From a virus (lineage: Duplodnaviria > Heunggongvirae > Uroviricota > Caudoviricetes): a stretch of 13,645 nucleotides of DNA. Each line of letters opens with the position of its first letter. The first letter of the stretch is position 1. A program made the position numbers and the translations under genes. A model generated the notes under the pieces. That model had not been told where the DNA came from and made no database searches. It worked only from the letters and a program-made list of their open reading frames with translations. Of this stretch, positions 1 through 6,600 are shown one piece after another. Location of the stretch: the IMG/VR virus record IMGVR_UViG_2541047884_000005, one strand, 5' to 3'.

Positions 1-92
1 CAGAAAAAGCTTATTATGCTTCCATCGGAAACGATGATCTGGCAGCCTGAGTTCACAGATAAAACACTCTCCAGGAAACCCGGGGCGGTTCA
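1..92 (+). mobile_element. IS629-like right end, partial copy truncated by the window edge
   Basis: Positions 1-92 are identical to 6475-6566, the last 92 bp of the complete IS copy including the terminal ...CCCGGGGCGGTTCA inverted repeat. Confidence 0.85.
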
Positions 93-330
93 CTTTGCCT
101 CCCCAGCCGCCGACCATGCCAGATTGAGAGAGTACGGGAAATGCCTCGATAACGATCTTGATCGCTTCGTTGAGACGTTCAATATCGACATCGGAACCCA
201 TATTAGGTGGGCATCCCTGATAGCAGACTCGACCATTTTGGATGCTAACAAGGCTCTTGAGCATGGCATAATTAATTCCATAAAAACTGCAAGGCTGGCA
301 TCCAATCAGGCAAACTGGTGGGTTGTTTGA
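93..330 (+). pseudogene. Possible 3' remnant of an unknown gene cut by the IS insertion (reading frame continues out of the IS end)
   Basis: Open frame from inside the IS end to a stop at 328-330, converging on the terminator at 352-380. No recognisable family, so it may be non-coding. Confidence 0.2.
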
Positions 331-351
331 TGGGTAAATCATGATTACTCC

Positions 352-380
352 TTATAAAAAACCCACCTGACGGTGGGTTT
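352..380 (-). terminator. Rho-independent terminator of the 1403->379 operon
   Basis: Perfect 7-bp stem ACCCACC (361-367) / GGTGGGT (372-378) with a TGAC loop. On the minus strand it is followed by a T-run (reverse complement of 351-360) and sits directly after the stop at 379-381. Confidence 0.7.
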
Positions 381-828
381 AGTCAAACATAGTGTTTCTA
401 AAGTCTCTCGCATACCCTGCTAACACTCTCATTCTATTATGATTGTTAGCAGACATGTGAGCTACAGGATGAAAAAGAGCAATCAATGAATACCTGTTCT
501 CATCAAAAAGATTTTGTGCATAAACGAGAGCGGTATTGGATGTTTTATGCCACTGCAACTTTTGCGGTGTGCTGATATCTGTGCCATTTTTTATTGGCTC
601 AAATTTATTTTCACCAATTGCTAAATGAAGGTGCATAAGGCCTGCATCTTCAATATCAGGAGGTCGATGATAAGAGGTGTCTCTGCCAAAATAGCTGGGC
701 AACGTTCCCGTAGACTTGTAGATGATAAAATCATCTACAAGTGTTTGTTTTAAATCAGGAAACTCAACAAAAACCGGGGAGAAAAAATAGTCAAAACTAT
801 CCTGATTATATTCCACGGTTACTTGCAT
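379..828 (-). CDS. Hypothetical 149-aa protein, second gene of accessory pair; no family recognised
   Basis: ORF with GAGG Shine-Dalgarno overlapping the upstream gene's stop, 8-bp gap to ATG (826-828), and terminator immediately downstream. Hand-counted 60-nt sample (541-600) had 25 G+C. Confidence 0.7.
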   Translation of the reverse strand: MQVTVEYNQDSFDYFFSPVFVEFPDLKQTLVDDFIIYKSTGTLPSYFGRDTSYHRPPDIEDAGLMHLHLAIGENKFEPIKNGTDISTPQKLQWHKTSNTALVYAQNLFDENRYSLIALFHPVAHMSANNHNRMRVLAGYARDFRNTMFD

Positions 829-836
829 GTTTTACC

Positions 837-1403
837 TCAGTGGAAGTTACCAGAGTGAAACACACGAGTCCCGTGCTCAGCAAGCGCACGCAAACCAGCC
901 ATATCTACGGAACTATCAAAAACAACCGGAACACATGAGCGTTGTTTAATAAGACTATTCAGGTTGGTTACGGCAGATCTGGCATCAGCAACAACGATAT
1001 AGATATCTCTTGCGATCTCTTTAAAATCAGCAGAAGCTTCTTTGAATACCGATTTCATTGCCCCTTCAAGTCCTCTCAATTGATGCTCTATCAATCGAGA
1101 CTTTTCTGGTTCAATGATAGACAACACATTGTCTACATTCTCATCGGTAGCGTTTGCAAGAACACGATAAGCGTATTTCAGCATTCGAGACAATTCTTTA
1201 ATCGAAGACACCGCCTCATGAAGCTCATCATTAGCCCGTTCACTGCTGAATGAGGATTGATGGTAAGCGTGCTGAACGTTATCAGTAACAACCACCTCAC
1301 AACTGAACGCAGAAGCTTGCTGTAATAGCAAACCTATTGCGACTCCAGCTTTGGCAGCGTTCAAGCTAAACATTTCATCAATCCCATTAGTCTCATTGCT
1401 CAT
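837..1403 (-). CDS. Hypothetical 188-aa acidic, mostly helical-looking protein, first gene of accessory pair
   Basis: ATG at 1401-1403 preceded by AAGGAGG (reverse complement of 1409-1415) at 5-nt spacing. The ORF-track start at 1433 is a TTG without an RBS, so the 1403 start is preferred. Confidence 0.7.
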   Translation of the reverse strand: MSNETNGIDEMFSLNAAKAGVAIGLLLQQASAFSCEVVVTDNVQHAYHQSSFSSERANDELHEAVSSIKELSRMLKYAYRVLANATDENVDNVLSIIEPEKSRLIEHQLRGLEGAMKSVFKEASADFKEIARDIYIVVADARSAVTNLNSLIKQRSCVPVVFDSSVDMAGLRALAEHGTRVFHSGNFH

Positions 1404-1578
1404 ACAAACCTCCTTCTTATCGGAGATTATCAATAGCTATGCATCCATTGAATACACGCTATGCGCAATAAGTTTACGTCACGTGATATCATTATGCAAC
1501 CACCGTTCTATCACCGACTAACTTTACTCCCACTCCTATACATCATCTGGTATCCTGCGCAAAACTAAGGAGGTTGGT

Positions 1579-1929
1579 GTGAATGCTCAGTCTGTCATCA
1601 TGGTTTTCCTTGGGCTGATTGTCGCAAAACTATATCCAGACTGGTGGAAAGGGGCATTAGCTACTGTCGCCATCTATTTGCTTTTATCCATCGTTAAGCG
1701 ATCACTCGCTGAGACCGTAAATCAAGCAAAACGTTTCTCATTTAAGAGTTTAATAAACTATGTTACTGGGCTTATTTTTTGCCTTTCAATTCTGATCGCT
1801 TCGGCTTTTTTGCCCGTATCAATAGCTAATTTTTTTGGCGCACCATATGAGGTAGGTTATCTATTCTCTGTTTCCTGTCTTGCCATTGCTCTTCTTTACC
1901 TGTGGACGAGATCAAAGAATAAAAATTAG
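1579..1929 (+). CDS. Small polytopic membrane protein, 116 aa, about four hydrophobic segments
   Basis: GTG start with AAGGAGG (1567-1573) at 5-nt spacing. Hydrophobic stretches such as VIMVFLGLIVAKLY and LIFCLSILIASAFLPVSIANFF. Hand-counted sample 1741-1800 had 18 G+C in 60 nt. Divergent from the 1403->379 operon. Confidence 0.65.
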   Translation: MNAQSVIMVFLGLIVAKLYPDWWKGALATVAIYLLLSIVKRSLAETVNQAKRFSFKSLINYVTGLIFCLSILIASAFLPVSIANFFGAPYEVGYLFSVSCLAIALLYLWTRSKNKN

Positions 1930-1946
1930 CCATCCGTGGCTGCCAG

Positions 1947-3962: not shown

Positions 3963-5256
3963 TCCACCGTAAATTGAATGCCTGATTTTGACGTGTAGCT
4001 ACCTCCTGCTGATTGCTGAGTAGCTGGCTGTTGCCTTGATGATTTCTTCCCGCCATTACCAACATTAACGTTATATTGCTGGTTGTAATTGTCGGTATAT
4101 TGCTGAATGTCGCGCATTGATTGTTGCAGCGCTTCAGGACTTGAGAAATCAGGCTTTGGCATACCCTGAAAATACCTATTGGCCTCTGCTTCGGTGTTGA
4201 TGCCAGATGCCCCCATATCTCGGGCTGCTGCAATCCCCTGATTTTGCATTTTGCCCATGATTCGCTGTGCAGCGTTGTATAGCCTCCTCTCCTCAACACC
4301 AGATGCCCTGCTACGAATATCTGCACCAAGAGCAAAAGAACCTGAAGAACCTGTAATACCTGTCATGAAGCCAAGATCGTCAATTGATGCGCCAGAAATT
4401 GCATCAAGATCTTTCTTCATTTCGTAATTCTGTGCATTAGCTGCCGATGTAGCCGGAGCAGCAATAGAACTGGCGGGGACGCGAATCATATTGCCCTCGT
4501 TGTCTATTCCTTCGTAGAACGCATTAGCACCAGCGCCGTGAAGCTTCCTACCAACCGTTACCGTTCTGCCATCTGCCAGTTGCACAACATTCTCCCCGCC
4601 AGCATCAGGACGACCTCGAACACGAAGATATGTCTTTTGTTGCTCTGGAGACAGGCTGTTGAAATATTGATATTCTTTAACAGATGCAGGAACAGCACCT
4701 CCAGCAGTGCGCAGGGAGTTTTCACGGCTAACAGCAATGCTTTGCGCCTTTAAACCTTCCCCAGCTTTATTGCTGCGAATCGTCTCTGCCAACTTGCCAC
4801 GCTCAATATCCCGACCTTCCATTTGATCTTTGATATCGAAATACTTCTCATGACCGAGAGAAAATAGTGCCAGATTACCTGCGAAGTGCTGGAAGCCCTG
4901 CGGGTCATTAACCTGCATTTCCGCAATAGTTTCTGGAGGGATACCTAAACGACGCATCTCCTTTTCGTTATCCATCATGAACCTGCCAAATGCACCCGGA
5001 CCAAGCGACGAAGCGACCTGAGCCTTAAGCGCCAGATTGCCAAAATCATCCCGCTGGGCGTCATCGACATACCCCATGCCTTTACGGACTTCCTCAAACT
5101 CTTCGGGGAATGCTGTAATAAGATTACGCATCTGCTCCCTGTCGCCGGACGCATAAGCATCCGCATAACCTTTCTGGAATGCCGCTTTACGCTCCTGCTT
5201 TTGCTGCTGCTTATAAATATCAGCAACTCCAGCCAGACCACGAAGACCTGTCAGAG
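3959..5256 (-). pseudogene. 5'-truncated ejection-protein-like gene (P22 gp20-class), decapitated by IS629
   Basis: Frame is open without a stop from the ORF-track Met (5131) all the way up to the IS boundary at 5256, so the original start and promoter are gone. Gly/Ala/Gln-rich; coupled to the downstream gene. Confidence 0.6.
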
Positions 5257-5310
5257 TGAACCGCCCCGGGAATCCTGGAGACTAAACTTCCTGAGAAAGA
5301 GGTAAACAGG

Positions 5311-5637
5311 ATGACTAAAAATACTCGTTTTTCCCCCGAAGTCCGTCAACGGGCAGTCCGTATGGTTCTGGAAAGTCAGAGCGAATATGACTCACAATGG
5401 GCGACAATTTGTTCCATTGCTCCAAAGATTGGCTGTACGCCGGAGACTCTGCGTGTCTGGGTTCGCCAGCATGAGCGGGATACCGGGGGCGGTGATGGAG
5501 GGCTCACCACCGCTGAACGTCAGCGTCTGAAAGAGCTGGAACGTGAAAATCGTGAACTGCGCCGCAGTAACGATATCCTTCGCCAGGCTTCCGCTTATTT
5601 TGCGAAGGCGGAGTTCGACCGCCTCTGGAAAAAATGA
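5311..5637 (+). CDS. IS629 transposase OrfA (HTH / leucine-zipper part)
   Basis: 108-aa [23 protein letters not shown]... matches my memory of IS629/IS1203 OrfA. Ends at TGG AAA AAA TGA, the A6 run (5629-5634) typical of IS3-family -1 frameshift windows. Confidence 0.9.
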
Positions 5638-6524
5638 TGCCACTGCTGGATAAGCTGCGTGAGCAGTACGGGGTCGGACCGCTATGCAGCGAACTGCATA
5701 TTGCCCCGTCAACGTATTACCACTGTCAGCAACAGCGACATCATCCGGATAAACGCAGTGCCCGTGCGCAGCGCGATGACTGGCTGAAGAAAGAGATACA
5801 GCGCGTATACGATGAAAATCACAAGGTATACGGTGTGCGTAAAGTCTGGCGTCAGTTGTTACGGGAAGGTATCAGAGTGGCCAGATGCACTGTGGCACGT
5901 CTCATGGCGGTTATGGGACTTGCCGGTGTTCTCCGGGGTAAAAAGGTCCGTACGACCATCAGCCGGAAAGCCGTTGCCGCAGGCGACCGCGTAAACCGTC
6001 AGTTCGTGGCAGAACGACCTGACCAGCTGTGGGTGGCTGATTTTACTTACGTCAGCACATGGCGGGGCTTCGTCTATGTGGCGTTCATCATTGATGTGTT
6101 TGCCGGATACATCGTGGGGTGGCGGGTCTCATCGTCCATGGAAACGACATTCGTGCTGGATGCACTGGAGCAGGCGTTATGGGCCCGTCGACCGTCCGGC
6201 ACGGTCCATCACAGTGATAAAGGTTCTCAGTATGTATCGCTGGCCTACACACAGCGGCTTAAGGAAGCCGGATTACTGGCATCAACAGGAAGTACAGGCG
6301 ACTCGTATGACAACGCGATGGCGGAGAGCATCAATGGTCTTTACAAAGCGGAGGTAATACACCGTAAGAGCTGGAAAAACCGTGCAGAAGTGGAACTGGC
6401 CACACTCACGTGGGTGGACTGGTATAACAATCGACGATTGCTGGAAAGGCTGGGCCATACTCCTCCGGCAGAAGCAGAAAAAGCTTATTATGCTTCCATC
6501 GGAAACGATGATCTGGCAGCCTGA
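5634..6524 (+). CDS. IS629 transposase OrfB (DDE/rve catalytic domain), expressed as OrfAB fusion by -1 frameshift
   Basis: -1 frame relative to orfA, overlapping at the A6 run. Contains DDE-type motifs ([30 protein letters not shown]). Confidence 0.9.
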
Positions 6525-6566
6525 GTTCACAGATAAAACACTCTCCAGGAAACCCGGGGCGGTTCA

Positions 6567-6600
6567 CGGCGGGAATGAGGACCATGACTGTTAAAGAGCA
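6567..6600 (-). promoter_or_regulatory. nutR remnant: intact boxA plus the 5' half of boxB, cut by the IS629 junction
   Basis: On the minus strand: TGCTCTTTAACA (reverse complement of 6589-6600), a 14-nt spacer, then TCCCGCCG (reverse complement of 6567-6574), identical to the first 8 nt of the nutL boxB hairpin at 7714-7731. The next base is the IS terminus. Confidence 0.5.

Follow-up and report, generated by a model that had tools for sequence, protein, structure and literature searches.

A phage-borne gene pair encoding a YafO-family toxin and a putative helical antitoxin beside the ejection genes of P22-like prophages

We analysed three small genes near one end of IMG/VR virus record IMGVR_UViG_2541047884_000005 (Duplodnaviria; Heunggongvirae; Uroviricota; Caudoviricetes), a stretch of 13,645 nucleotides (nt) that is referred to here, at its full length, as the window. 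Two of the genes, encoding proteins of 188 and 149 amino acids (aa), follow each other on the minus strand and are the main subject of this work; the third, encoding a 116-aa membrane protein, diverges from them (Table 1). The window is an Escherichia coli P22-like prophage remnant: its positions 93-1946 are 100% identical to a CUS-3-type prophage found at tRNA-Arg in APEC O1, S88, ATCC 11775 and other strains. The gene order in these intact prophages is gp20, gp16, the genes encoding 116 aa (reading the other way), 188 aa and 149 aa, and then a ClpP-like protease gene and an Arc/Mnt-family gene (co-oriented), followed by arc, ant, the tailspike gene, an acetyltransferase gene and intS. The placement of the three genes between the gp16-like gene and the immI region, as proposed in an initial annotation made from the window alone, was therefore seen directly in intact relatives, and all three open reading frames (ORFs) exist as it had described them. 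Its claim of a low guanine-plus-cytosine (G+C) content was borne out in kind, since 352-1929 has 40.7% G+C versus 46.2% for the whole window, the lowest of all segments of 1578 bp; the contrast is however milder than the hand counts on which the claim was based.

Table 1. Features of the YafO-family gene pair and of its surroundings. Positions are those of the window; a dot marks a feature without strand.
Feature	Position	Strand	Description
YafO-family toxin gene, 149 aa	379..828	-	putative mRNA endoribonuclease; WP_001198454.1; PF13957
Partner gene, 188 aa	837..1403	-	putative antitoxin; WP_000064337.1, phrog_8416; all-alpha, unannotated family
Coupling junction	829..839	-	partner TGA stop (837-839) overlaps GAGG(T) Shine-Dalgarno; 8-nt spacer to toxin ATG
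Intrinsic terminator of the two-gene operon	352..380	-	stem AAACCCACC/GGUGGGUUU, loop GUCA, then UUUUUUAU
Divergent control region, 175 bp, conserved	1404..1578	.	75% mean column identity, five P22-like prophages
Polytopic membrane protein gene, 116 aa	1579..1929	+	GTG start, AAGGAGG 5 nt upstream; WP_011703616.1
Weak hairpin and T-run downstream of the gp16-like gene, between two convergent genes	1928..1941	-	terminator-like, from consensus scan
ClpP-like protease gene, C-terminal part	93..330	+	WP_000903306.1; E. coli matches begin at window position 93

None of the three genes had initially been assigned to any family. For the 149-aa protein this does not hold: by its sequence, it is a member of the YafO toxin family. 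It matched Pfam PF13957 over profile positions 3-101 of 101 (E 3.4e-22; 78.9 bits, with a gathering cutoff of 25) and phrog_1651 with an E-value of 1e-47, and it aligned with YafO of E. coli K-12 at 38% identity over 120 aa (E 7e-20). All its homologues carry PF13957, and RefSeq already names the protein “type II toxin-antitoxin system YafO family toxin”. The motifs FGRD, HxH and PxxH are common to the phage protein and K-12 YafO and are conserved, with a catalytic role that is only putative. YafO is classified as an mRNA-degrading toxin of the BECR-fold RelE/ParE superfamily, encoded in antitoxin-first gene order (PMC11980606, Table 1), and its dependence on the ribosome is debated (PMC8546651). 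Compared with K-12 YafO, the phage toxin has an N-terminus that is 17 aa longer. No solved structure was detectable by sequence among YafO relatives.

The same alignments bear on whether the 149-aa protein could be a DNA nuclease, either PD-(D/E)xK or metal-dependent, a proposal that had been drawn from a weak PD-x14-ExK arrangement (the string PPDIED...GENK) and from two clusters of histidines in the window's protein. E73 and K75 vary among close homologues, in which the GENK position reads GKNE, GSNA, DNDT, GDDV or GPNI, and the aspartate of the PD stands opposite a leucine in K-12 YafO. The histidine clusters are real, but as a hint at a nuclease or metal site they lose their force, being conserved motifs of the YafO family: LMHLHL aligns with VAHIHL and HPVAH with KPEPH of K-12 YafO, so that the HxH motif corresponds to AHIHLA and PxxH to PEPH. 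With the YafO Pfam model matched end to end by the whole protein, a DNA nuclease is barely credible, and the protein is better described as a homologue of the YafO mRNA endoribonuclease.

The 149-aa gene is tightly tied to the 188-aa gene upstream of it (the partner, from here on). The translational coupling initially noted, in which a GAGG Shine-Dalgarno (SD) sequence lies over the TGA stop of the partner with an 8-nt gap between the genes, is genuine and is kept in nearly all related loci. We retrieved loci through the partner by several routes: seven by gene look-up, HK639 and the Pseudomonas phage vB_PaeS-D14L, four bacterial genomes, 26 viral contigs, and two very distant loci. In all of these (about 45), an ORF of the YafO family (PF13957-type) lies directly downstream of the partner, and the linkage holds down to 23-25% partner identity. 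The junction CAC TGA GGT NNNNN ATG/TTG is conserved across all contexts, and the gap is exactly 8 nt in the approximately 45 scored loci with the exception of L021; L052 and L053, the most distant of the pairs, have a 3-nt gap and a 1-nt overlap. The reverse retrieval, through the toxin, gave a partner of about 190 aa upstream in every locus found. The two proteins also diverged together, with a Mantel r of 0.87 that none of 5000 permutations equalled, and in 98% of comparisons the toxin was better conserved than the partner, a pattern common among toxin-antitoxin pairs. Overall, the pair has the generic gene organization of type II toxin-antitoxin systems: bicistronic, co-oriented, tightly coupled and inherited together, with the antitoxin position first, as in yafNO.

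In L021 (IMGVR_UViG_2537562173_000011, about position 4620), the toxin gene has a run of seven Ts for six, which causes a +1 frameshift at about codon 16; the partner is intact and the copy is otherwise identical. This may be either an inactivation of the toxin or a homopolymer sequencing error. Loss of the toxin with the partner kept is the direction of decay expected of a toxin-antitoxin pair.

Homologous pairs with the same 8-nt spacing are present in HK639 (gp17/gp18) and in vB_PaeS-D14L (DBA08736/DBA08735), and represent the same module. The records and papers on these phages name only the toxin, which is treated as a toxin without antitoxin. YafO genes of Pseudomonas prophages (vB_PaeS-D14C and vB_PaeS-D14L) have been listed as toxins found alone (PMC10449497), and a YafO-like gene of a tailocin cluster (PMC4684702) is also among these “solo” prophage YafO toxins. 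In current annotation and in the literature that we found, prophage YafO toxins figure as lacking an antitoxin, and the invariant, unannotated gene upstream of them is a candidate for a new antitoxin family.

The partner is not a YafN. The chromosomal module of K-12 (dinB-yafN-yafO-yafP) resembles the phage pair in its toxin family, PF13957, and in having the partner first and tight spacing; however, YafN is a 97-aa protein of the Phd/YefM type, while the phage partner has 188 aa, is all-alpha and is unrelated (BLASTP E 36 against YafN). Also, yafNO sits in the SOS-regulated dinB operon, whereas the phage module has its own control region and terminator. We found no credible match of the 188-aa protein in Pfam, NCBIfam or PDB sequences; a profile of the partner family likewise found nothing against PDB sequences or Pfam, and none of 20 members of the family had a Phd/YefM Pfam match. 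Its only match in PADLOC-DB v2 was a weak one to the coiled-coil tail of ZorA (ZorA2; E 0.0039), which is probably spurious coiled-coil noise. The predicted structure is an all-helical bundle. The family is small, with six clusters at 90% identity in 5.8 billion sequences, and 19 representatives, about 15 of them of similar length, in 1.84 billion sequences. Our literature search found no paper describing this partner.

The pair is flanked by its own expression signals. The terminator proposed after the 149-aa gene proved sound: it has a 9-bp, G+C-rich stem followed by U6, shares 2 nt with the stop codon of the toxin gene, and folds with a free energy (dG) of -14.9 kcal/mol (z -2.9; one of 200 shuffled sequences was as stable). 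A consensus scan for terminators did not report this hairpin. At the other end of the operon, the frame of the partner opens with the ATG at 1403, preceded by AAGAAGGAGG (AAGGAGG upstream). This partner SD, in the control region, lies within a 7-bp hairpin (AAUCUCC/GGAGGUU, 1407-1428), and the CTCC...GGAG pairing over it is kept in P22-like and in other phage contexts. The control region also contains, at 1567-1573, the conserved SD (AAGGAGG) of the gene on the opposite side. A search for repeats within it yielded nothing beyond the two SD sequences, which face each other, and short repeats attributable to chance; no operator could be defined.

Taken together, we consider it probable that 352-1578 is a self-contained, phage-borne two-gene operon encoding a YafO-family toxin and its cognate antidote, that is, a moron of the non-canonical type II toxin-antitoxin kind. 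Among the functions initially suggested for these genes (superinfection exclusion, abortive infection or a toxin/antitoxin-like pair), an accessory toxin/antitoxin-like pair at the junction of the ejection genes and immI is the best supported. The 149-aa protein would be an endoribonuclease that stops translation by cutting mRNA, and the 188-aa partner its cognate protein inhibitor, in place of the Phd/YefM-type YafN antitoxin of chromosomal yafNO. Translational coupling would have both proteins made in a fixed ratio, from an operon presumably expressed from the prophage and ending at its own terminator. The likeliest benefit would be release of the toxin once the partner is lost or inactivated, whether as abortive infection when a second phage enters or as addiction when the prophage is lost. 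A toxin-antitoxin-like prophage moron is a familiar category and in this respect the finding is incremental; at about 1.2 kb, native signals included, the module is compact enough for cloning and direct testing.

Several results weigh against a toxin with its antidote. The 149-aa protein scored 79 bits with the NCBIfam equivalog PRK09885 (YafO), for which the cutoff is 153, which makes it a member of the family and not an equivalog; its activity may therefore differ from that of K-12 YafO. The AlphaFold2 model of the toxin (predicted local distance difference test score, pLDDT, of 52) was of too low quality for a RelE-like fold to be confirmed. A promoter scan of 1404-1578 gave no site at the scan threshold. 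The partner is large for an antitoxin, no helix-turn-helix, ribbon-helix-helix or AbrB domain was detected in it, nor any other recognisable DNA-binding domain, and a fold search with its model returned generic helical bundles only. Finally, its N-terminal helix, with the conserved motif IGLL[LM]QQ, is moderately hydrophobic and, in the remotest members, signal-peptide-like; an exported partner would be unable to sequester a cytoplasmic ribonuclease (RNase), and the antitoxin model would fail.

This last point leads to a different explanation, in which the 188-aa protein is exported or membrane-anchored and the pair is something other than a toxin-antitoxin system; it might, for instance, combine an envelope factor with an RNase for the takeover of the host by the phage, or involve a protein of YafO fold that is no longer toxic. 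The conserved hydrophobic helix is followed in the model by a low-confidence linker, the N-termini in L052, L053 and L016 are signal-peptide-like with AxA-type sites, and in several phages the pair lies within late or tail operons. However, the mean Kyte-Doolittle hydropathy over 19 residues is 0.7-1.6, so that most members fall short of the threshold commonly set for transmembrane segments; the window's protein has an acidic n-region (net charge -2); and the polar QQ in IGLL[LM]QQ suggests an interaction helix over a mere signal peptide. The 8-nt coupling and the co-divergence are moreover typical of proteins that bind each other, and the toxin keeps the FGRD, HxH and PxxH motifs of K-12 YafO, putatively catalytic. 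We therefore regard an exported partner as unlikely. The IGLL[LM]QQ segment itself may be an export signal, a membrane tether or a toxin-binding helix. Within the segment formed by residues 11-35, Met11 is invariant in nine closer relatives, and some homologues begin there.

The pair was found in phages and prophages of Escherichia, Salmonella, Serratia, Buttiauxella and Pseudomonas, at several moron positions. In P22-like prophages (Escherichia, Salmonella) it occupies the interval between gp16 and immI. In siphoviruses, HK639 (gp17/gp18) included, it lies among the tail genes; one siphovirus-type contig has it beside an Arc/Arc/Ant immunity region, in the tail-gene block between the tail-tube and tape-measure genes. 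A lambdoid phage carries the pair between the Q antiterminator gene and the holin gene, and in a Pseudomonas prophage it adjoins the integrase end. Because of these varied positions, together with its own terminator and low G+C content, the pair has the character of a moron, and its distribution suggests that the two genes pass together from one moron site to another among temperate phages.

Outside the P22-like group, the pair is preceded by a conserved promoter-like element, TTGCTC-18-TA(G/A)(A/G)(A/C)T, and then by a hairpin-rich leader (seen in L008 (3290-3420), L010, L013, L015 (HK639), L018, L020, L032, L034 and L036). In some of these members the element overlaps a palindrome, TTGCTCA-N4-TGAGCAA. 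The leader, of about 100 nt, contains two hairpins in which pairing is preserved through base changes, the second being terminator-like with a T-run; it had no match in Rfam. The leader and palindrome may constitute an attenuator or an operator.

The reading preferred in the initial annotation is a narrower version of the one that we favour: the pair would be a dedicated anti-phage abortive-infection system, with the helical partner as a sensor that keeps the YafO-like RNase inactive and frees it upon meeting a component of a superinfecting phage or upon shut-off of host expression. All occurrences of the pair are in phages or prophages, where it takes classic positions of morons and defence cargo, by immI and near the sieA site; with a promoter region and a terminator of its own, it could plausibly be expressed from the prophage; and toxins of the RelE/ParE superfamily are documented defence effectors (PMC11980606). 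The parallel with such BECR toxins, and with toxin-antitoxin abortive infection generally, is that of a superfamily RNase restrained by a co-encoded protein on a mobile element. In contrast to those systems, no sensor or antitoxin domain is known from the phage partner: fold and Pfam searches identified no sensing domain in it. The PADLOC models gave no convincing match either (PADLOC-DB v2 had none for the 149-aa toxin or the 116-aa membrane protein), which also counts against a toxin-antitoxin pair in the broader sense. The literature that we found reports no defence phenotype for any member of the YafO family. We regard a dedicated abortive-infection system as conceivable but somewhat improbable; equally, we lean against phage defence, as opposed to addiction or another function, as the role for which the pair was selected. 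A more far-reaching proposal, speculative and rather doubtful, is that the helical proteins of about 190 aa form an unrecognised family of antitoxins or sensors for phage YafO toxins, and with them a new abortive-infection or addiction system of temperate phages of Enterobacterales and Pseudomonas. The hydrophobic N-terminal helix might here tether the partner to the membrane, and perturbation of the envelope or of translation in superinfection would free the RNase.

The 116-aa gene is not part of this module. The initial annotation had taken the three genes as a single cassette, but our comparison of neighbourhoods showed only the 188-aa/149-aa pair travelling together, with the membrane gene unlinked. 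A single functional cassette for exclusion or abortive infection could be argued from the adjacency of the genes, their shared 175-bp divergent control region and their joint low G+C content, as well as from the intact trio in 51 E. coli genomes. However, sister prophages with the same pair and control region have unrelated divergent genes; homologues of the membrane gene occur beside gp16 without the pair (among 5426 complete E. coli genomes, 229 have the membrane gene versus 55 with the pair); and where the pair lies in siphoviral, lambdoid or Pseudomonas surroundings, no gene of this kind adjoins it. We consider a single three-gene cassette highly improbable. Homologues of the 116-aa protein were found in Enterobacterales only, always convergent with a gp16-like gene, and in the contexts examined beyond the window's own lineage (E. 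coli and Yersinia) the YafO pair was absent. The protein had no family match in Pfam, PADLOC, PHROG or NCBIfam searches, and no match in phage records. RefSeq calls the gene from the ATG at 1600, which gives a protein of 109 aa.

The sister prophages also showed how the region is built. Five P22-like prophages (the window at 1404-1578, and L002, L003, L005 and L006 at about 5800-6010) share the control region including the SD of the divergent gene, and their ORFs begin 5-7 nt past this SD. The ORFs themselves are mutually unrelated, encoding 116, 297, 140, 107 and, in one prophage, 111 plus 75 aa. The control region thus looks like a fixed bidirectional expression slot in which unrelated cargo has been swapped exactly at the start codon, and the gp16-distal slot of P22-like prophages is a useful place to look for prophage genes of benefit to the host.

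The 116-aa gene is an independent moron at the position of sieA in P22. As with SieA, the gene comes right after gene 16 and is convergent with it, the product is a small polytopic protein of inner-membrane type, and the gene presumably has a promoter of its own. The sequences show no similarity (BLASTP E 0.29), the motif FxRYPxEAxxFNK of SieA (PMC10883804) was not found on reading the 116-aa sequence, and SieA has 164-200 aa. SieA proteins have been divided into types A-C, and P22 SieA excludes CUS-3 (Leavitt et al. 2024, PMC10883804). Because its slot matches that of sieA and the protein has membrane character, one may guess, and only guess, that the 116-aa protein has an envelope-acting function expressed from the prophage, such as exclusion. 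Between this gene and the gp16-like gene, the hairpin at the convergent junction (Table 1) folded no better than chance (dG -5.7 kcal/mol; z -1.0).

Homologues of the 116-aa gene were also observed in three E. coli contigs (L048-L050, 5000-10390), together with gp20-like and gp16-like genes and beside a DUF927/Toprim primase gene, AlpA, PerC and an Abi_2 gene; no further virion genes were seen there. These may be satellite-like or heavily rearranged elements with P22-type ejection genes.

The survival of the three genes in an otherwise gutted prophage had been taken as a sign of benefit to the host. We find little force in this argument: there is 100% identity between the remnant and intact CUS-3-like prophages, so the decay is recent and retention says little about selection. 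The decay involves IS3 insertion sequences. A single IS3 end at window positions 1-92 interrupts the ClpP-like gene, and a full IS3 (orfA 5311-5637, orfB 5634-6524) cuts the gp20 homologue, which is thereby fused to the cro/c2 region. The block formed by the truncated gp20, gp16 and the cassette is in this way bracketed by two IS3 copies or ends (1-92 and about 5240-6590). The exact junction between IS3 and the ClpP-like gene had no one-piece match among the 5426 complete E. coli genomes.

In CUS-3-type prophages, the ClpP-like protease gene (178 aa) comes directly after the co-oriented immI gene of the Mnt/Arc family (L001, 13454-14238) and is convergent with the YafO operon. An immunity repressor and a ClpP-like protease make an unusual combination. 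We considered this protease as a third component of the toxin module and rejected it: the other loci with the pair lack its gene, and it therefore probably lies outside the module. The only Rfam match in the window was the frameshift pseudoknot of IS3 orfA/orfB, ALIL (RF01497; 120 bits), at 5592-5708.

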